The notes beneath the pieces are model-generated. The model had not been told where the DNA came from, did no database searches, and was given only the letters and a program-made list of their open reading frames with translations. Shown here one piece after another: positions 1 through 16,332 of a stretch of 26,501 nt of DNA; the stretch's first letter is position 1, and each line of letters opens with the position of its first letter. The stretch lies in the IMG/VR virus record IMGVR_UViG_2698536418_000022; one strand, written 5' to 3'. A program made the position numbers and the translations under genes. The DNA comes from a virus (lineage: Duplodnaviria; Heunggongvirae; Uroviricota; Caudoviricetes).

Positions 1-84
1 TACGTCATTGAACATATCCAGGACTGGCCGGCAAACCGGGTACGCGATCTGTTGCCCTGGAAAGTTGATCTGAGCTCTCAGTAA
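1..84 (+). CDS. 3' end of a plus-strand gene entering from upstream; candidate alternative tail-fiber variable C-terminus
   Basis: Frame 1 is open from position 1 to a TAA at 82-84 (YVIEHIQDWPANRVRDLLPWKVDLSSQ). It lies directly upstream of the plus-strand tfa-like ORF and converges on the minus-strand fiber genes. Confidence 0.3.
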   Translation, partial: YVIEHIQDWPANRVRDLLPWKVDLSSQ

Positions 85-150
85 ATATCAATACGGTTCT
101 GACGAGTCGCTTACGCATTAGATATTCCTGATGACATTTCTGTAAAATAT

Positions 151-465
151 ATGGCGGAACCGCCACAAGGGAAAATCCGAGTTGCAGGGGAAAATGGTTT
201 TCCCACATGGGCTGAAATACCTCCACCATCACATGAGGAACTTATTGAACAGGCCGAATCAGAGAGGCAATTATTGATTAACCAGGCCAACGAATACATG
301 AACAGTAAACAATGGCCCGGTAAAGCCGCTATTGGTCGTCTGAAAGGTGAGGAACTGGCGCAATATAATTTGTGGCTGGATTATCTGGAGGCACTGGAGC
401 TGGTTGATACCTCCAGTGCGCCAGATATTGAATGGCCTACGCCTCCGGCAGTTCAGGCCAGATGA
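151..465 (+). CDS. second tail fiber assembly-like protein (short, 104 aa), convergent with the minus-strand tfa
   Basis: ATG at 151. C-terminus LDYLEALELVDTSSAPDIEWPTPP parallels the C-terminus of the minus-strand Tfa (LDYIDAVTATDTSTAPDVIWPELP). 3' ends overlap at 437-465. Confidence 0.45.
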   Translation: MAEPPQGKIRVAGENGFPTWAEIPPPSHEELIEQAESERQLLINQANEYMNSKQWPGKAAIGRLKGEELAQYNLWLDYLEALELVDTSSAPDIEWPTPPAVQAR

Positions 466-1039
466 CATCCGGCGCGGTGCTGGTATCTGTTGCCGTCACC
501 GCGTCAATGTAATCCAGCACAGCGTTAAGTCTGGTTGTTTCTGCCTGCGTCGGTTTACGTCCGGCCTGCAATTTCAGTTGAATCAGACTGATGGAAGCCA
601 TTGCTGCATCAATCAGTGACTGGCGCTGTGCTTCTGCCGCTTCTACTGCGGCACCGTGTTGTGCCTCAGTATCGGTCACCCATTTCTTACCATCCCATTT
701 ATCGAATGGCGTTAACGGGGCGATAGTGGTTGTATTTTCAGGATAATCACCCGGAGCTGTGATTTCTTTGGCGTCTCCCGTTTCGGTGTTATAGACGATT
801 TCACCGCGATGGTCTGGCACATATTCCCATGAGTTTAAATCCATCGAACGGCAGATAGCATAACCCGCCTTATGTATACCAGGTTCATCCAGACAGGAAT
901 ATGCAGGGATACCGACACCAATGGCAAGATATTCATTTGAAGTAGAAATATATTCCCGAGTTTTACCATCATAGTTATAGACGGTAATATTCCCCGCCTT
1001 CGTGGCAATAAGCTCGCTATTTAATACGGCGTTATCCAT
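437..1039 (-). CDS. tail fiber assembly protein (P2 gpG / Tfa family)
   Basis: 200 aa ORF, ATG at 1037-1039 overlapping the H stop; sits immediately downstream of tail fiber gene as in P2. Confidence 0.8.
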   Translation of the reverse strand: MDNAVLNSELIATKAGNITVYNYDGKTREYISTSNEYLAIGVGIPAYSCLDEPGIHKAGYAICRSMDLNSWEYVPDHRGEIVYNTETGDAKEITAPGDYPENTTTIAPLTPFDKWDGKKWVTDTEAQHGAAVEAAEAQRQSLIDAAMASISLIQLKLQAGRKPTQAETTRLNAVLDYIDAVTATDTSTAPDVIWPELPEA

Positions 1040-2652
1040 TATGCAGCCCTCACGATATAGTTAAATGCAATATTTCGTGGACGGGTTTCACTCCCGCCAG
1101 TATTACCGATACTCCCTCGTGAATGAAGTGTCGGTGATGGGATCAGACTCCCTCCTGTATTTGTGGCATCAAGTCCACGTCCTTGTGTGTATGTCTTTTT
1201 GAAAATCGTAGCCAGTTCCCATTCATCTTTTGTGTCGTAACCATCATTGGCAACAACAATATGGCGGTGTTTTTCCAGCATCCCTGTCTGAATGCTCAAT
1301 AAAACACGTCCTGCATCAATACCGCGCCCGTCATCCCAGCCACGAATAAACTCACCACGTAAATCAGGTAATTTATTTGTCGGATAAGCCTTTGCCAGTT
1401 CCGGGTATTCTTCAGCAGAAAAAGCCGCACCGTTGCATTTCAGCCAGCCTGTTGGCGGTGTGGCTGAAGGCCATGGAACAGGCACACCAACAGGTAATGC
1501 AGAGCCTTCTCCCAAACCAAGGTAATCAAGAACTCCCTGAGTGCTGGTTTTACCAAGAATGGCACGTCCAACACTTGTCAACGCGGTTAACGCGGCACGA
1601 TCTGCCCCTGTAAAATATGGGAGTTTATCTGCTGATGTAGCAAGCTCCGCCAGCGCCGTCAGGGTGGCATCCTTCGGTTGCTTACCCGCAAGCGCGTTAG
1701 TCATGGTGGTCGCAAAATTCGGGTCATTGCCCAGCGCCGCAGCCAGTTCGTTCAGCGTGTTCAGTGCATCAGGTGACGAATCTACAAGTGCGGCAATCGC
1801 GGCCATAACGAAAGCCGTGCTTGCGATCTGGGTACTATTAGTTCCCTGTGGCGCTGTTGGTGTTGTTGGCGTTCCGGTCAGTGCCGGGCTGTTTAATGGT
1901 GCTTTCTTGTTCGTTTCATCCATTACCACCTTAACAGCTTTTGGTGTCGCTGCCAGCGTTTCAGACGTGCTGTTCGTGGCGCTACTGAGCTGAACAATCC
2001 CTTTTTGTATAGTGGTGGCGTTCTGGGCGGTATATTTCCCGTTAGCCAGGTCATATGCAGCCTTAACCGCTTTCGGTGTTGCGGCCAGTGTTTCTGATTC
2101 ACTGTTAATTGCACTGCTTAACTGAGTAAAACCTTTTGCGGTCAGCGAGGCGTCCGGGTGACGTCGTGACTGTTCGTGCTCTGAGATTTTATCATCCACA
2201 TATTTGCGGGTTGCCAGAACCACAGACGGGTCGATTTTCAGCGTGATAGCTTCGGTGTTCGTGACAACCAGAATCATGCGGATAGTCTGGGTGCGTCCAC
2301 TGCCTTCCTGCAACTGCGGTTTGTACGTTTCCGGGCAGTTTGCCACCGCAATGAGTACACCTTCATCATCATAAAGACCAATCTCACGGATCCAGAATCC
2401 TCCCTCGTTTTCAGGGATGATTTGCTCCGCAATAATCTGGCTCTGATTGTTAGGGTCAACACTCAGAAGATTCAGCGGTGCAATGCGTTTCTGGTTAATC
2501 AGTTTTGTTTGTGCAGGGTCTGGTGTTGGTAACACACCATTTGCATCACCAACGGCCATTTGCGTCAGATTCAGCTTACTGCCGAGCATCGTCGCGTTAG
2601 CCAGTCGTGCTGCGCCCTGATTAGTCAGAATGGCGTAGTATTTCACTGTCAT
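1039..2652 (-). CDS. tail fiber protein (P2 gpH-like)
   Basis: 537 aa. Internal SETLAATPKAVK fiber repeats, conserved LDYLGLGEG junction, and C-terminus ending NIAFNYIVRAA typical of P2/Mu/Stf-type side fibers. ATG at 2650-2652. Confidence 0.9.
   Translation of the reverse strand: MTVKYYAILTNQGAARLANATMLGSKLNLTQMAVGDANGVLPTPDPAQTKLINQKRIAPLNLLSVDPNNQSQIIAEQIIPENEGGFWIREIGLYDDEGVLIAVANCPETYKPQLQEGSGRTQTIRMILVVTNTEAITLKIDPSVVLATRKYVDDKISEHEQSRRHPDASLTAKGFTQLSSAINSESETLAATPKAVKAAYDLANGKYTAQNATTIQKGIVQLSSATNSTSETLAATPKAVKVVMDETNKKAPLNSPALTGTPTTPTAPQGTNSTQIASTAFVMAAIAALVDSSPDALNTLNELAAALGNDPNFATTMTNALAGKQPKDATLTALAELATSADKLPYFTGADRAALTALTSVGRAILGKTSTQGVLDYLGLGEGSALPVGVPVPWPSATPPTGWLKCNGAAFSAEEYPELAKAYPTNKLPDLRGEFIRGWDDGRGIDAGRVLLSIQTGMLEKHRHIVVANDGYDTKDEWELATIFKKTYTQGRGLDATNTGGSLIPSPTLHSRGSIGNTGGSETRPRNIAFNYIVRAA
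1507..1532. promoter_or_regulatory. Hin/Gin/Cin-type DNA invertase crossover site (hix/gix-like 26 bp) inside the tail fiber gene
   Basis: TTCTCCCAAACCAAGGTAATCAAGAA closely resembles the recalled hixL (TTCTTGAAAACCAAGGTTTTTGATAA), with two inverted 12 bp half-sites. It encodes the conserved VLDYLGLGEG constant/variable junction. Confidence 0.5.
1930..2124 (-). repeat. two direct copies of a ~63 bp segment inside the tail fiber gene encoding QLSSA(I/T)NS(E/T)SETLAATPKAVK
   Basis: Protein-level repeat at residues 177-197 and 221-241 of H, mapped back to DNA. Confidence 0.6.
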
Positions 2653-3257
2653 GCGTTTACTCTCAGATTATCAATTAAATGAATGGCCGGGGCAGGGAAA
2701 TAATCCCCTTCGACAATAATGGACTCCGGGGTGTAGGGATAAACCGTCAGGGCATCGCCGTGATAGCATCCCGTACCAACGAAAATCTTTCCGTTCACAC
2801 TCAGGCTGATCGCCAGCCCCGTCAGATGGCGACTTACTGGTTTTGCATCCGCAATAAGGCGCTCAAGTTCCTGATACATTTCATCGGTGATGCCCTGATC
2901 AAGTACTCCGACAACAATGCGAAATGTTCCTGGCTCCTCGTTGAGTTGCCACCACTCCTTTACTTCAATCAGGTAGCCGAGAGGCTCCACGGCTCTTCGC
3001 AGTGCGCTGATGGTCCCTTTGTGTCGGTGTATCAGCCATGCATCACGAATTACCTGTCGCTTTGTCTCTTCCGGCCAGTTGCGATCCCAGCGGTCAACGG
3101 AAAACGCCCAGGCGAGATAAGGCAGCAGATGCACCGGGCAGGTGTCCGGCGACCACAGCGTGTTGAGGTCTACCGGAATGTCTGTAATGCGTGTTCCGAC
3201 GGCTTCGGCACAACGCATGAAATTGCTGGCTGATGGTGGTAACAACGAATTACTCAT
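2649..3257 (-). CDS. baseplate assembly protein (P2 gpI-like)
   Basis: Start re-placed to the ATG at 3255-3257 (MSNSLLPP...), matching the recalled P2 gpI N-terminus; the track start at 3290 is a GTG extension. Stop overlaps the H start. Confidence 0.85.
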   Translation of the reverse strand: MSNSLLPPSASNFMRCAEAVGTRITDIPVDLNTLWSPDTCPVHLLPYLAWAFSVDRWDRNWPEETKRQVIRDAWLIHRHKGTISALRRAVEPLGYLIEVKEWWQLNEEPGTFRIVVGVLDQGITDEMYQELERLIADAKPVSRHLTGLAISLSVNGKIFVGTGCYHGDALTVYPYTPESIIVEGDYFPAPAIHLIDNLRVNA

Positions 3258-4500: not shown

Positions 4501-5078
4501 TGCGGGCCTCCTGTCGAATCGCTGCCACCTTTAACGCCACCGTGCTTATGCGTATGCACTGTGATGCCGTTTGAGGTGAAATCGCCGCCGCTGTGCGTGA
4601 TATTGCCGCTCATCTTTCCCCCTTTTGTGACGTCAATCTCGGCTGTTTTCAGAAGGTTTGTGCATTCCACGACGGGCGTATCCAGTTTCACGCTGACGGA
4701 TGCCTGCAGGGTGGCTGTTTTCATGCCGCTGGCGCTCAGTGCGCCTGCGTCCGCGTCGTAGCGGAACACCGCGCCATCCGGCGCGCTGACCACGATTTCT
4801 TTCAGGCTTTTGCCGGGGGCCGGATTGGCATCACTCCACAGGCTGCCAATTATCATGGCGGTTTCCGGGTTGCCGCCAATGCAGGCAATTACCACCTGTT
4901 CGCCCACTGATGGCGGCAGCCACACATTGAAGGTTCCCGCGCGCGTGGTGTTCCAGCGCAACCAGCCTGTTTCCAGTTCGCCGCTGCGAACGCGCACGCG
5001 CCAGGACTTCTCATCAACTTCAGAGATGATCCCGGTGCGGATGATATTGCTCAGCAGTCGCATGAGTTCTGCGCTCAC
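4497..5078 (-). CDS. baseplate spike / assembly protein V (P2 gpV-like)
   Basis: 193 aa with IRTGII...WLPPSVGEQV...HTHKHGG motifs as in P2 gpV. Start is either GTG at 5076-5078 (overlapping the S stop) or ATG at 5061-5063. Confidence 0.85.
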   Translation of the reverse strand: MSAELMRLLSNIIRTGIISEVDEKSWRVRVRSGELETGWLRWNTTRAGTFNVWLPPSVGEQVVIACIGGNPETAMIIGSLWSDANPAPGKSLKEIVVSAPDGAVFRYDADAGALSASGMKTATLQASVSVKLDTPVVECTNLLKTAEIDVTKGGKMSGNITHSGGDFTSNGITVHTHKHGGVKGGSDSTGGPQ

Positions 5079-5710
5079 CGTACAGCCTCCGCAATCCGGC
5101 CCAGCACCGTGTTATAAATCAGACGCTCATCTGCCTGGCTGATACCCAGCAGCTCACGTACCGGGTAATCGGTGAAAATGCCCGGCGCAACCTGATCGCG
5201 CTCACCGTACTGATGAACGCGGGCAATACGTGCGGCTACGCCGCTGTAACCCACCGTCACACCGGAAGCATCTGCACGGGCTTTCAGGTAGCGGGCGGTG
5301 CGCAGTTTTACGAACATGGGGACGCGCTTTGTGCTGTCCTGGTTGATGCGCCGGGTGCGTATTTCCAGAAAACGGTCGATGTCATCCCGATAAAACGTGC
5401 GGATATTGTTTTTATCCTCATCCCACCCGGTAATGGTTCGCCCGTATTTCCCCGTGTCGTGATGCCAGTTTTTCAGCGTGCGTGCTTCGTTATTCCAGAT
5501 AAAGCGAATGCGCTCCTGTATCCGGGTTACGCGGCGTCTGCGTGGTGTCCATGCGGTCCCGTCCGGCGCTTTCTGTGACCGGATGCGCGCCTGCTGGGCG
5601 CGGCGTAAATCCTGTGCCAGCTTTCTGGCGATGTTATTGATGGCCTGCTGATTCAGGCTGTCGCGGATAGCCTCAAAGGTTTCATCCACGCGGGTGAATG
5701 CCTTATCCAT
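5075..5710 (-). CDS. virion morphogenesis / tail completion protein (P2 gpS position)
   Basis: Start placed at the ATG at 5708-5710; the track start at 5719 is GTG. Assigned by position between R and V. Confidence 0.65.
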   Translation of the reverse strand: MDKAFTRVDETFEAIRDSLNQQAINNIARKLAQDLRRAQQARIRSQKAPDGTAWTPRRRRVTRIQERIRFIWNNEARTLKNWHHDTGKYGRTITGWDEDKNNIRTFYRDDIDRFLEIRTRRINQDSTKRVPMFVKLRTARYLKARADASGVTVGYSGVAARIARVHQYGERDQVAPGIFTDYPVRELLGISQADERLIYNTVLGRIAEAVR

Positions 5711-6170
5711 CGCTTTCACCCCGCGTCACATCCTGGAATACATGCGACCAGTCGCCTTCGGAAGAGGGCAGGCGGGGTTTTGGCTCCGGCAGGTGTTCTG
5801 CCTGCGGTGTGCCCTGACTGTTGCGCGTAATGCGAACGCGTTCCCGCAGGGGGAGCGTAAACAGGAGATCGGCGCTGTCATCGTCATTGATAACGGCGGA
5901 AAATTTGATGTCCTGATTACGCTCCGGATTGAGCAACAACTGTGGCTGATTTTCGGATAACCACGCCAGCAGCGGCAGCGTGAGGTCGTCCAGCTCCCCG
6001 GCGTAATCCATGACAAACATCACCATCTGATAGTGGTAAACAAACGAGGGAGTTTCTCCGGTCGTTTCAATGTTGCCGCTCTCCACGAAAATGGTGAATT
6101 TTTCCGGGTTAGCCTGACACCATCGGCATGAACGGGTCATGGCTTCACGCAGGGAATCAGTTTTCAGCAT
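5703..6170 (-). CDS. tail completion protein R (P2 gpR-like)
   Basis: 155 aa, N-terminus MLKTDSLR resembles recalled P2 gpR. ATG at 6168-6170. Confidence 0.8.
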   Translation of the reverse strand: MLKTDSLREAMTRSCRWCQANPEKFTIFVESGNIETTGETPSFVYHYQMVMFVMDYAGELDDLTLPLLAWLSENQPQLLLNPERNQDIKFSAVINDDDSADLLFTLPLRERVRITRNSQGTPQAEHLPEPKPRLPSSEGDWSHVFQDVTRGESDG

Positions 6171-6447
6171 GGTTGTTATCCTCGTTGTTCAGTCGTTGCA
6201 GCCTGCGTTGTTCCAGTAATTCAATGGCCCGTTTATCCGCGTTACAGGTTTCCAGTGCATCCAGAAGGCGGTCGCCCCATATACCGAGATTTCCCCATGT
6301 GGGAGTGTCAGGGAAGGGGGGAGGCGTTACCGGTATGGTCAGCGTCTGCGGTATAAGCCGGACTGACGGCGCTGGCAGTGGCGCGTTCTGCGTGCCTGCG
6401 CAGCCTGTCAGTAAAACGAGCGTCAGGCAAAGCGTGGGCGCATTCAT
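6157..6447 (-). CDS. o-spanin (Rz1 / LysC-like outer membrane lipoprotein)
   Basis: ATG at 6445-6447. Signal peptide with lipobox LLTGC, proline-rich mature part. Starts inside the Rz frame and extends past its stop (overlapped spanin architecture as in P2 lysB/lysC). Confidence 0.7.
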   Translation of the reverse strand: MNAPTLCLTLVLLTGCAGTQNAPLPAPSVRLIPQTLTIPVTPPPFPDTPTWGNLGIWGDRLLDALETCNADKRAIELLEQRRLQRLNNEDNNHAEN

Positions 6448-7426: not shown

Positions 7427-7627
7427 CTACTCCCCCCACAACTGAATCATTTCTCGTTTCTTCTTCTCCGGCTCTGGCATCTCCACGTCCTGCCCGGCGT
7501 CCAGAAATACCTGCTGGCAGAGTCCGGGGTTGGCATCCAGCACCTTTTCGGTGACGCCCTGCGTCGTGCCGTAGTACCGGAAACAGAGCGAATCCACGGT
7601 GTCGCCTTCCAGTGCCTTTACTTTCAT
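7427..7627 (-). CDS. tail protein X (P2 gpX-like, LysM-like)
   Basis: Start re-placed to the ATG at 7625-7627 (MKVKALEGDTVDSLCFRYYG...), matching recalled P2 gpX. ATGA overlap with the L stop. Confidence 0.8.
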   Translation of the reverse strand: MKVKALEGDTVDSLCFRYYGTTQGVTEKVLDANPGLCQQVFLDAGQDVEMPEPEKKKREMIQLWGE

Positions 7628-8121
7628 CAGCACAACTCCGCAAAGATTCGCGGGCGGCACAGAATGTCAGAGATGGCCCAGCTCACATCACGCCACAAAT
7701 CCGATGTCTGTATATCCAGTGCGTCCGCCCTGCGGTCGCCCTTGTCCGTTGTGTCCACATCGCGGTAACGCTCCAGAATCAGGGCGCGTGTGGCGGTATA
7801 AACAGCATTGCGCCAGTGCCAGAGATTGACGCTTTCTCCGTTAATTACGGGTGCCGGAACATCGGCCAGCGTCAGATGGCCAGCCGCCTGCTGTTCCTGC
7901 TGCCACGCTTCCAGCTCGCGGGTAACGTGTGCCACTGCCCCGGTGGCGGTATGCAGCAGGCGGGAGGTGGTCACACGGCCCGGCAGTCGTATCGCCAGAC
8001 GCAGCTCACGCAGCACAATATCCGGCCAGAATGCACCCGCTGAAATACGGGTATCACCATCATCGGTATCGGTGATGTCGTCCTCTGCGGGTCTTGGTTC
8101 AGTTCTGGCAACCATACTCAT
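7627..8121 (-). CDS. head completion / stabilization protein (P2 gpL-like)
   Basis: 164 aa, ATG at 8119-8121, position between M and X. Confidence 0.85.
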   Translation of the reverse strand: MSMVARTEPRPAEDDITDTDDGDTRISAGAFWPDIVLRELRLAIRLPGRVTTSRLLHTATGAVAHVTRELEAWQQEQQAAGHLTLADVPAPVINGESVNLWHWRNAVYTATRALILERYRDVDTTDKGDRRADALDIQTSDLWRDVSWAISDILCRPRIFAELC

Positions 8122-8224
8122 GGGGGTTCACTCCTGAAAAAAATCGGGCGGTGGGTGCTCGGTGTAAACGGTCACGGAGTCAAACCGGAACACCGCGCAC
8201 GCCGCCCGCTGACGGGGTCAGTCG

Positions 8225-9025
8225 TTAACCGCGCTTCGCCTTCTGCGTCGCGGTGGTTTTTCGTGTTGCAGGCTTCCGCGTTGTCTTTTTACTTTTGCTG
8301 CTTTCGTCCTGCGCCTGCGGTGTGCTGGCATCTTCTGGTGCGGCTGCGGAATCGGCTTTTTTCAGGGCGCGGGAAAGGGTTGCAATCTCGCGTTTCACAC
8401 CTGCGTTCGGGTTCAGGTGCATCGCTTCGCGCAGCAGCTTCAGTGATGAGGCCATGCTGTCCGCATCGGTCAGGCCACGGCGGGCAAAGGCGCACGCTTT
8501 GCATAATTTGGCGCGCACTTCGTCCGGCATGTCCTGGTCGGTGACAATCTCCCGGAGGGTGTCCAGTGGTTCGATAAAGGCGGACAAATCCGCGTCGGCA
8601 TCCGTCCCGGCCTGCGTCAGTACCGGATTACAGATTTCTTCGGTCAGTACCGTGGCAGCAGTACGGCCAAAGTTATCCGGCATGATGAGGTTGTGATGGA
8701 CCACATACGCGCCGATACGCAGCGCAAGCGGAAGATCGCCACAGTCAATCGCCCACACCATCAGCGTGGCAATCACTTCATCCTGCTGCCCGCCGTCAGC
8801 CTCCAGCGTTCCCTCAATCCAGCCGGAAAAATCCGGCAACAACTCTTTTTTGATGGCGGCTTTCGCGCTTCTGGCCTGTACGCCCTTAAGCCGGGCCTGT
8901 GCCAGACGCAGACGATACAGCACCTCTTCATGCGCGGTACGCGCGGCATGGTCCACGCCTTCATTCGCCCGGCCTGCGCGCTGTGCCATCACGTTCTGCC
9001 AGTGTTGCTGTGCAGGAGTAATCAT
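8225..9025 (-). CDS. terminase endonuclease (small) subunit (P2 gpM-like)
   Basis: 266 aa, ATG at 9023-9025 with GGAG RBS; basic C-terminal tail; position downstream of capsid gene. Confidence 0.85.
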   Translation of the reverse strand: MITPAQQHWQNVMAQRAGRANEGVDHAARTAHEEVLYRLRLAQARLKGVQARSAKAAIKKELLPDFSGWIEGTLEADGGQQDEVIATLMVWAIDCGDLPLALRIGAYVVHHNLIMPDNFGRTAATVLTEEICNPVLTQAGTDADADLSAFIEPLDTLREIVTDQDMPDEVRAKLCKACAFARRGLTDADSMASSLKLLREAMHLNPNAGVKREIATLSRALKKADSAAAPEDASTPQAQDESSKSKKTTRKPATRKTTATQKAKRG

Positions 9026-14856: not shown

Positions 14857-15056
14857 ATGGACAATGCCGCGCAATTATCTTGTCGCTCACAATGCGAACG
14901 ATCTTACAAAAAGGCACATTACTGTCAAGATAATTGATCGTTTTAATCGATAGATAATAGACAATCTATTTGTTTAACAGATCGATTATTGAAGTAAGTG
15001 TGCCAAATGGAATGATACTGTCTCTATAAACGTGAGCATTTTTCGCGCAGATGCTT

Positions 15057-15368
15057 TTACTCAGGAAATAACGCCCGGATATTCCCAGCCATCTGGCTGG
15101 TTATCTTAGCCACTGGTGCAGACTGTGCTTCAAACTTTTTTGAGCTGATTTGTGTCACAGGTAACATCTCATCATCAGCCCATGCGGCCAGTCGGTAAGC
15201 CTCTGCCGGATTCGTCTTCAGAAGTGCCAGCCCGGCCAGAAAAGCCACGCGTTGGCCGCTTTTGCGGGCTTCTGGTGTAAGGCTGTCCAGCCAGGCGCAT
15301 GCTTCTCCTTCGTTCTTGACGGCGGCGGGCTTCAGATAGAAACTTATCCGTCTGGTTGGTGTCGTCAT
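15057..15368 (-). CDS. parR: ParR-like centromere-binding adaptor (type II partition)
   Basis: Start placed at ATG 15366-15368, 4 nt after the parM stop with AAGGAG RBS. N-terminal RRISFYLKP...VAFLAGLALL and C-terminal IRALFP resemble recalled plasmid R1 ParR (RRTIAFKLNP...LTAGLALY...LRSLFP). Confidence 0.7.
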   Translation of the reverse strand: MTTPTRRISFYLKPAAVKNEGEACAWLDSLTPEARKSGQRVAFLAGLALLKTNPAEAYRLAAWADDEMLPVTQISSKKFEAQSAPVAKITSQMAGNIRALFPE

Positions 15369-15372
15369 TGGT

Positions 15373-16332
15373 TTACTCCTTGTCCATTGCGTACAGCCCA
15401 TTAACCAGAGCAAACTGTGGCACCCCGTCCGCGATGAAAGTCGCATTAACTCCGCAGGCTTCGCGGATAGCGGGTGCCACAATCTCCGCCCCGCCACCGA
15501 CAACCATCACCCGCCCGTAACCCGAAAAAACCGCCAGCGCGCGGATCACGCGTTGTTTCAGTGTTTCTTCCTTTTCACGAATAACCGCCATCAGGCTGGC
15601 GTAATGCGCGTCATTGTGGATGTGCTGGCGCAGCCAGGCTTCATTATGGCGATGTTCGATAATGGTATTGGCGATGTGGTGACTGGTGCGCATACCGTTA
15701 GTGGCCATCACCGACAGTACGGCATCGGCCATAAGAGAAACGCCTACGTGTGGATCGCAAAACACCTGGCTGATACCTGCCAGTTGCCCCTGAACCTTTG
15801 CCACATCCAGCGTGGTTCCGCCCAAATCCACAATCAGCAGGGATTCAAACGGACTCATGTCAGCCAGTGCTTTAAAGCCAGCCGGAATGGATTCAGGCAT
15901 AACCCGTACGTTACGGATAGTGAATGCTTCGCCGTTCTGGTACTCCACCGGGCGCATGACGTTCGCTTTTTTGCGGTTGATGTTGGCCATGTCCGGCTGT
16001 GCGTTTGTGTCGAAATATTCGCTCAGTGGCAGGGTAACAACCACATCCACTTCCTGTGGCGTGATGTCTGATTTGACCAGCGCGTGATGAATGGCAATGA
16101 CATTCACATCGCTGTACTGGTATTGCGTGTCGGTCGTCTGGACAAAGCGATCGCTGACCGGATCAAAACCATAGCGCACGCCATCAAGCATGTAGTTAGC
16201 AGGCTGCGAGCCACCGAACGGCGCAGACCATTCCGACTTGAAGCTGTTCGGGCTGATGGCGTTGCGGCGTTCGCCGTTCTCAGTCCATGCCAGCTTGATG
16301 TTGGTGGAGCCGTCGTCGATGTAAATTTTCAT
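15373..16332 (-). CDS. parM: ParM/StbA-like actin-family segregation ATPase
   Basis: 319 aa. IDDGSTNIKL, ISPNSFK, YSDVNVIAIHHAL, VMPESIPAG, SLLIVDLGGTTLD, FSGYGRVMVVGGGAE blocks are near-collinear with recalled plasmid R1 ParM. ATG at 16330-16332 with AAGGA RBS. Confidence 0.85.
   Translation of the reverse strand: MKIYIDDGSTNIKLAWTENGERRNAISPNSFKSEWSAPFGGSQPANYMLDGVRYGFDPVSDRFVQTTDTQYQYSDVNVIAIHHALVKSDITPQEVDVVVTLPLSEYFDTNAQPDMANINRKKANVMRPVEYQNGEAFTIRNVRVMPESIPAGFKALADMSPFESLLIVDLGGTTLDVAKVQGQLAGISQVFCDPHVGVSLMADAVLSVMATNGMRTSHHIANTIIEHRHNEAWLRQHIHNDAHYASLMAVIREKEETLKQRVIRALAVFSGYGRVMVVGGGAEIVAPAIREACGVNATFIADGVPQFALVNGLYAMDKE

Follow-up and report, generated by a model that had tools for sequence, protein, structure and literature searches.

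The P region of e14 in E. coli K-12 (stfP/ycfK-tfaP / tfaE-stfE / pinE) is among the closest described systems to the locus analyzed here: two convergent cassettes, each composed of a fiber tip and a tfa gene, lie between inverted 26-bp sites, with the invertase gene beside one of them. Sites of the same length are found at the border between the constant and variable parts of the fiber genes in the p15B Min, P1 Cin (C segment) and Mu Gin (G segment) systems, as they are here, and the alternative tips of these systems likewise each have their own tfa or U-type chaperone. Closer in prophage type are the P2-like prophages of EPEC E2348/69, in which sequencing and PCR have revealed both orientations of the fiber locus side by side (Goldberg et al. 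2014, PMC4272514). P2-like prophages of E. coli commonly carry invertible fiber switches; these have been described before, and their flipping has been shown experimentally.

We analyzed a 26,501-nucleotide viral sequence (the window; IMG/VR record IMGVR_UViG_2698536418_000022), from which an earlier note, made from the sequence alone, had proposed an invertible tail-fiber host-range cassette laid out like that of Mu, P1 and e14. We consider it highly probable (about 0.88) that the window shows, at positions 1-1520, part of an invertible segment like the e14 P region (Pin type), carried by a P2-like E. coli prophage. Sequence comparisons indicate that the locus is truly a Pin-type fiber switch and was active in the recent past; its layout is that of the e14 P region, and the core of the earlier proposal is borne out by a partner site, an invertase gene and both orientations in relatives. 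Assignment to the P2-like prophages (Peduoviridae) follows from ORFs and Pfam/RefSeq names in the window and its relatives, which show the late gene order R-S-V-W-J-I-H-G together with P2-type capsid, terminase, gpA and integrase genes. The prophage is located next to btuC in E. coli.

The crossover site, of the pix/mix type (TTCTCCCAAACC AA GGTAATCAAGAA), occupies positions 1507-1532 with its AA core at 1519-1520. It has the features of Din-family sites, namely a length of 26 bp, an imperfect palindrome of the form TTC---AAAC- -A -GTTT---GAA and a 2-bp core. Using a published table of such sites (PMC3241671 Table 3) as the comparison set, we found that it is identical at 25 of 26 positions to p15B mixQ''R' (TTCCCCCAAACC AA GGTAATCAAGAA) and that its left half and AA core are identical to those of both e14 pixL and pixR (22/26 identical to pixL over the full length). 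The Hin/Gin/Cin-like pattern by which this site had first been picked out is accurate. The sequence TTCTCCCAAACCAAGGTAATCAAGAA has a single occurrence in the window (1507-1532); no further copy was found there with up to three mismatches, a search of the whole window for the 14-nt half-site plus core (up to two mismatches) returned only the same positions, and 0 of 100 shuffles contained a match to TTCTCCCAAACCAAGGTAATCAAGAA with up to three mismatches. The site coincides with minus-strand codons 374-382 of the tail fiber gene H (VLDYLGLGE), the fiber junction on which the earlier note had placed it. The alternative H proteins are identical through ...GLGE and then diverge, into GSALPVG... in the window and AAKRNVG... 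in a flipped sibling.

Hc, the constant N-terminal portion of H (codons 1-373, minus-strand positions 1533-2652), lies outside the invertible segment and carries Pfam Phage_tail_fib (E 2e-62) and Phage_fiber_2 repeats. The variable C-terminal part that is now in the expressed position, Sv (codons 383-537, positions 1039-1506, minus strand), is a StfE-like tip with a Pfam Collar domain at residues 389-436 (E 5e-15); it is 61% identical to e14 StfE, with the first ~80 residues nearly identical. It is followed by tfa (437-1039, minus strand; Caudo_TAP E 2e-32), an intact TfaE-like assembly gene for this tip that is 87.5% identical to e14 TfaE across its 200 aa. Converging on it with an overlap of 29 nt is the 3' part of tfa' (115-465, plus strand; Caudo_TAP E 3e-30), the TfaP-like assembly gene of the alternative tip. 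The mechanically called ORF begins with an ATG at 151 and ends at 465, with the frame open from 115. What remains of it in the window corresponds without mismatch to residues 32-147 of the undisrupted gene product of strain JP538 (147 aa), and the last ~40 residues match e14 TfaP exactly. The earlier identification of a convergent second tfa-like gene (151-465, plus strand, against 437-1039, minus strand) therefore stands, as both ORFs carry Caudo_TAP.

The first 31 codons of tfa' have been severed by an insertion sequence. Positions 1-114 (plus strand) are the right end of an ISCro1-like element of the IS66 family, with a terminal inverted repeat ending ...CGCTTAC at 108-114. Bases 1-84 are the final 27 codons of the transposase TnpC, with the stop codon at 82-84; on this 27-aa fragment Pfam DDE_Tnp_IS66_C scored E 5e-5, below the cut-off owing to shortness. 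The same 114 bases, without a difference, close a full-length copy of 2,699 bp on contig L003 (4799-7497) of the sibling assembly GCA_001285845.1. This copy has genes for TnpA, TnpB and a TnpC of 523 aa, with all four IS66 Pfam domains, and its termini read GTAAGCG.../GTAACCG.... Copies with 100% identity in E. coli genomes are annotated in RefSeq as "IS66-like element ISCro1 family transposase." An 8-bp target-site duplication, GCATTAGA, marks the insertion into tfa' at 115-122 and is present again at the other end of the element beside the 5' fragment of tfa' (L003 7498-7505, reverse complement). It is single in JP538, which is free of the element (L001 8001-8008) and whose alignment to the window begins exactly at 115. 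The hallmarks of the IS66 family (tnpA-tnpB-tnpC, terminal repeats that open with GTAAGCG and a target duplication of 8 bp) were thus found through the full L003 copy, the window itself holding the last 114 bp only. A plus-strand ORF does end within 1-84, as the earlier note had reported, but its suggested identity as the C-terminus of an alternative fiber is ruled out: it is the end of an IS66-family transposase, with the repeat ending at 114. The insertion takes the length of the invertible segment from about 1.9 kb to about 4.6 kb.

The invertase gene is absent from the window, which is contig CYCB01000003.1 of assembly GCA_001283405.1 and starts at a contig end within the insertion sequence. 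Among the contigs that carry the exact truncated Tfa' (n=6) and the exact H protein (n=9), those bearing the element in the window orientation all end at it. The upstream invertase and inverted site that the earlier note had predicted were both found in the relative JP538, which is 100% identical over window positions 115-2700 and has the order recombinase, Sv', tfa', tfa, H from left to right. Its partner site (L001 7545-7570, reverse complement TTCTCCCAAACC AA CGTTTAAGAAAA) matches pixR at 25 of 26 positions, has an AA core and is inverted relative to the site in H, 1.8 kb away. An inverted partner site with the same core was found in JP538, FRIK944 and the siblings L003 and L004, and relatives of the locus have two sites only. 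The repeat shared by both sites is 14 nt long when exact and 18 nt long at 94%. In relatives and siblings, the adjacent gene encodes a 199-aa serine invertase (Pfam Resolvase and HTH_7) with an N-terminal catalytic serine motif, YVRVSTNDQ, and a C-terminal HTH; it is 82.5% identical to e14 PinE, and its alignment with Mu Gin runs from end to end (PDB 4m6f; E 1.5e-91, residues 1-184). By analogy, one would place the partner site and invertase of the window's genome some 3.0-3.7 kb beyond the left edge of the window. They had been expected just to its left. Their existence is upheld in relatives, where they lie right beyond the alternative tip; their closeness is not, as the 2.7-kb element intervenes.

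In such systems the Fis-dependent, cis-acting enhancer is a pair of Fis sites that commonly lies toward the 5' end of the gene for the invertase. For the present invertase gene, a simple scan (G-N13-C with an AT-rich center) over the first 330 nt gave candidates at 94 and 131 and no pair spaced by ~48 bp; Fis sites are degenerate. Outside the window, the gene order departs from that of P2 in that the FI-U tail block is on the opposite strand. We considered this block in the relatives as a second invertible segment and rejected it: no pix-like half-site flanks it, and the spacer between U and pin is a 26-bp terminator-like hairpin.

Both orientations, which the earlier note had suggested looking for, were found in assemblies. 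L003 and L004 agree with the window at every base of 1-1520, the junction with the insertion sequence included, and differ from 1521, at the center of the site. Beyond this point they continue with the pin-proximal half-site and then the invertase gene, such that the Sv stretch adjoins the invertase gene, which is the flipped state. The reciprocal junction is present in L003 (7600-9081), where Hc is in frame with Sv' and the N-terminal 382 residues of H are fused to a gp53-like tip (493 aa). The complete O157:H7 genomes FRIK944 and BB24-1 share their tfa, tfa' and invertase proteins with each other and are likewise in opposite orientations. Across complete genomes, the Sv-Hc junction was found in 108 and the junction between Sv and the recombinase side in 864, a count that includes e14-like elements. 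These counts show that both types are common and do not give a ratio, as the pin side is inflated by the e14-like elements and Sv' diverges ~50-60 nt from the site. Because siblings with the same insertion sit in the other orientation, the switch of this lineage still flips; because these flipped siblings bear the element and an intact 199-aa invertase, inversion happened after the insertion. Assemblies of this locus can differ in orientation without being wrong, and a short ORF annotated as "phage tail protein" or "gp53-like" beside the recombinase is best annotated as the parked half of H.

It is possible, though improbable, that in the window's own genome the locus is a relic of Pin-type ancestry in which the switch is dead and the fiber fixed in the Sv state, its invertase or partner site having been lost or separated by a rearrangement associated with the insertion sequence. 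The contig does end in the element with the invertase and partner site out of view, multicopy ISCro1 has been rearranging the region in L003 (where a second copy abuts a truncated tape-measure gene), and the constant part of H in BB24-1 is a pseudogene, indicating that such prophages do decay. Against this, the siblings with the identical insertion are flipped and retain the intact invertase. Furthermore, Hin, Gin, Cin and Pin are interchangeable, so an invertase of a resident e14 or Mu-type element could act in trans if the partner site remains.

Far less probable still is that the two orientations arose without the serine invertase, through RecA-dependent recombination at short inverted repeats or through assembly artifacts. 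The 14-nt exact repeat (18 nt at 94%) is indeed the only homology at the junctions, and L003 and L004 are short-read drafts. RecA, however, needs homology far above 14 nt for efficiency; 14 nt is also shorter than assembler k-mers and cannot cause a misjoin, closed genomes exist in the same two states, and the repeat is a near-exact copy of proven Pin and Min sites beside an intact invertase. Finally, although the lambdoid phages HK97 and HK106, which have no invertase, carry the Sv-side half-site in their side tail fiber genes and lose homology to the window at the site center, so that the half-site also marks a module boundary in non-inverting systems, mere coding conservation of the LDYLGLGE peptide at such a boundary, with the second tfa left over from horizontal module exchange, is scarcely credible in the face of exact reciprocal junctions at the site center in otherwise identical sequences, an inverted partner site adjoining a Gin/Pin-type invertase and complete genomes in opposite orientations.

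With a Pin-type switch as the preferred reading, the locus can be described as follows. The VLDYLGLGE codons at the end of Hc double as the 26-bp recombination site. In the present orientation, Hc is fused to the Collar tip Sv and followed by that tip's chaperone gene tfa, and the facing cassette is that of the other tip. To the left of the insertion sequence there would be, as in relatives, the 5' part of tfa', the gp53-like Sv', the inverted partner site and the 199-aa serine invertase. A contig extended leftward would be expected to read invertase, TTCTCCCAAACCAACGTTTAAGAAAA (reverse complement), Sv', the 5' part of tfa' and the left end of the element, GTAACCGGCTC.... By the mechanism known for Hin, Gin, Cin and Pin, dimers of the invertase on the two sites would come together in a synapse, aided by Fis on the enhancer, and both strands would be cut at the central AA/TT, rotated and religated. 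The flip would fuse Hc to Sv', with tfa' next. We infer that the inversion is catalyzed by the encoded invertase, as in these systems.

The orientation in the window is the one that has both an intact fiber gene and its chaperone. In this lineage the alternative orientation is probably non-functional, yielding a fiber tip without an intact chaperone; the sole basis for regarding that state as defective is that tfa' is split by the insertion sequence. One rather doubtful extension is that ISCro1 has turned Pin flipping into an on/off switch for functional fibers and that, in L003, recombination between the two copies of the element has inverted a larger block, leaving the pix sites in direct orientation and the switch locked; the path of the L003 contig through the multicopy element may, however, be the assembler's choice.

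The e14 element is a lambdoid remnant with a truncated constant part, whereas here the prophage is full-length and P2-like with a complete H; in addition, the alternative tip here is gp53-like (31% identical to e14 StfP) and tfa' is split by an insertion sequence. Min is a six-site shufflon, unlike this locus, and Mu and P1 differ in their tips and have GA (gix) or AA (cix) cores; the Min, P1 and Mu elements are Mu-like or P1-like and not P2-like. The absence of an inversion system from canonical P2, as stated in the earlier note, holds for P2 itself, but the implied novelty does not, given EPEC E2348/69 (PMC4272514) and KC618326. The EPEC E2348/69 loci share prophage type, host species and kind of switch with the present one, a likeness drawn from their published description; one of them has three repeats and four variants, compared with the two sites in relatives of our locus. 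Many complete E. coli genomes contain the same cassette with an annotated recombinase. KC618326 (Peduovirus magyaro, from E. coli O157:H43 T22), which is also P2-like, has the same order of H, tfa, convergent tfa', a small ORF and a "phage DNA invertase," with about 90% DNA identity over 66% of window positions 115-2700. It is without the insertion sequence, and its tail genes FI-FII-E-T-U-D are co-directional with H, whereas in the window's lineage the FI-U block is strongly diverged and lies on the opposite strand.

From 437 to about 10,100 the window is occupied, on its minus strand, by P2-like prophage late genes in the order G(tfa)-H-I-J-W-V-S-R-lysis-X-L-M-N-O; beyond them lie terminase, portal, parM-like genes, gpA, early genes and then an integrase adjoining btuC. 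Between portal and gpA, the replication gene, are partition genes of plasmid type, coding for a ParM-like segregation protein and a small partner; they sit at about 15,000-16,300 by correspondence with 5055-6330 of the sequence L009. The tail-fiber gene H (1039-2652, minus) encodes 537 aa with a P2 fiber N-terminal domain, fiber repeats and a C-terminal Collar domain, and tfa (437-1039, minus) encodes a 200-aa assembly protein (Caudo_TAP). The earlier note had claimed a 26-bp Hin/Gin/Cin-type crossover site at 1507-1532, at the VLDYLGLGEG junction of H, and a convergent second tfa-like gene at 151-465. We compared this site, TTCTCCCAAACC AA GGTAATCAAGAA, with the Din-family sites in Table 3 of PMC3241671 and found it identical to mixQ''R' of p15B at 25/26 positions, with its entire left half and AA core common to pixL and pixR of e14. 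The 26-mer occurs once in the window, with 0 matches in shuffled sequences, and its coding strand reads VLDYLGLGE (H codons 374-382). The ORF at 151-465 (plus) is the 3' part of tfa', the assembly gene of the alternative gp53-like tip Sv'; it is a Caudo_TAP gene, and its 3' end and that of tfa overlap. Site match, position and convergent ORF together confirm the observation. The side tail fiber genes of HK97 and HK106, lambdoid phages without an invertase, match window 1490-1523 at 100% and cease to match at the site center; the site therefore also bounds horizontally exchanged fiber modules.

Bases 1-84, which had been taken for the 3' end of a second fiber ORF, proved to be a transposase end from an ISCro1-like element, with 27 residues matching Pfam DDE_Tnp_IS66_C. 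The 100% match to JP538 (L001), the closest complete genome, begins exactly at base 115, and window 1-114 agrees at every base with the end of an entire 2,699-bp element (tnpA, tnpB and a 523-aa tnpC; terminal repeats GTAAGCG.../GTAACCG...) in the sibling assembly L003 (GCA_001285845.1, 4799-7497). In E. coli, where the element is multicopy, identical copies carry the annotation ISCro1 family of IS66-like elements. The 8 bp GCATTAGA at 115-122 are repeated at the other IS end, adjoining the 5'-most 34 codons of tfa'. The IS entered by simple insertion with target duplication and interrupts the 147-aa tfa' gene after codon 31, a minor twist specific to the lineage. Contig CYCB01000003.1 (GCA_001283405.1) is identical to the window over its first 10,465 bases; the window starts at a break of a short-read assembly inside the IS.

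JP538 carries, in order, U (plus), a recombinase (L001 6890-7489, minus), a 129-aa gp53-like ORF (7517-7906, plus), tfa' (7908-8351, plus), tfa (minus) and H (minus). The best inverted repeat of this region pairs 7554-7571 with the H site; the full partner site, TTTTCTTAAACGTTGGTTTGGGAGAA at 7545-7570, reads TTCTCCCAAACC AA CGTTTAAGAAAA on the other strand (25/26 to pixR), and the JP538 prophage region has no further sites. With e14 PinE the recombinase shares 82.5% identity; its residues 1-184 align with Mu Gin (PDB 4m6f, E 1.5e-91) and the catalytic serine motif is present. A partner site and invertase had been expected just left of the window: both are present in relatives, but next to the window the IS would intervene. 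From the JP538 layout plus the IS, the window genome's own copies, in a region off its contig, would be expected ~3.0-3.7 kb left of base 1.

Searching with the exact truncated Tfa' sequence gave six contigs. Two of these, L003 and its sibling L004, start where the window does within the IS. Both agree with it base for base over exactly 1,520 nt, as far as the site's AA core, and then run into the pin-proximal half-site, followed by the invertase gene and U-T; from 1521 on, L004 differs from the JP538 invertase side by 1 mismatch in 7,556 bases. In L003 the reciprocal product is present too: the constant part of H (Hc) runs on in frame, after ...GLGE, into the gp53-like tip, as a fusion of 493 aa. 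All these assemblies have the same IS insertion, and the simplest history is a single insertion followed by inversion; the enlarged segment (~4.6 kb with the IS vs ~1.9 kb without) therefore still inverts. Identical tfa, tfa' and invertase proteins occur in opposite orientations in two closed O157:H7 genomes, and both junction types are common among complete genomes, which independently supports inversion. Because the window genome's own invertase and partner site lie off its contig, and every IS-bearing contig in its orientation stops at the IS, a locked relic, in which the switch of this particular genome no longer works, is conceivable; we consider it improbable.

In the closed, flipped genome of O157:H7 BB24-1 (L007 4465-5194), Hc is annotated as two pseudogene fragments; this prophage is decaying although its invertase is intact. 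L003 (2715-7598) has a second complete ISCro1 copy between a tape-measure gene truncated to 682/935 aa and the 5' part of tfa', and as assembled its two pix sites lie in direct orientation on one strand. With an N at 4796 and a draft path through a multicopy IS, the assembler may have chosen this arrangement, and a real IS-mediated inversion need not lie behind it.

The comparison with relatives shows a pair of pix-type sites in inverted orientation that share one core, with a Gin/Pin-type invertase adjacent. It also shows reciprocal junctions at the core and two alternative in-frame C-termini, with a Caudo_TAP gene of its own behind each. By analogy with the established Hin, Gin, Cin and Pin systems, invertase dimers would bind at each site and be organized by Fis and an enhancer into an invertasome; staggered cuts would then open the central dinucleotide, and the subunits would rotate before religation. 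A crude scan of the first 330 nt of the invertase gene gave Fis-type candidates at 94 and 131 but no two at a spacing near 48 bp; with Fis sites being degenerate, this argues neither for nor against an enhancer. The window's orientation keeps the fiber gene and its chaperone intact. A flip would leave Hc-Sv' with just 34 codons of tfa' behind it before the IS begins; the flipped state of this lineage therefore probably gives a non-functional fiber.

The earlier interpretation was therefore right at its core, an invertible fiber cassette, and wrong about bases 1-84 and the partner's nearness. We also agree that canonical P2 lacks such an inversion system. In every relative, the tail block FI-FII-E-E'-T-U, left of the window, is on the opposite strand to H...invertase and to D-ogr (L001 1288-6863, L004 2214-7789; also L002, L011 and L012), whereas in P2 and the P2-like phage KC618326 (L010) FI through D are codirectional with H. 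Neither flank of the FI-U block has a pix-like half-site, and FI of the relatives is only ~66% identical to that of KC618326. This kind of switch is already known in P2-like prophages: the tail-fiber loci of two such prophages of EPEC E2348/69 invert, as seen by sequencing and PCR (Goldberg et al. 2014, PMC4272514), the deposited KC618326 is laid out likewise and has a DNA invertase in its annotation, and RefSeq annotates the recombinase adjoining this cassette in many E. coli genomes. In the e14 P region, TfaE is 87.5% identical to tfa here, StfE is 61% identical to the variable tip Sv, and the TfaP C-terminus is identical to that of tfa'; by these similarities and those of PinE and the pix sites, the locus is closely related to the e14 P region and is housed in a P2-like prophage.
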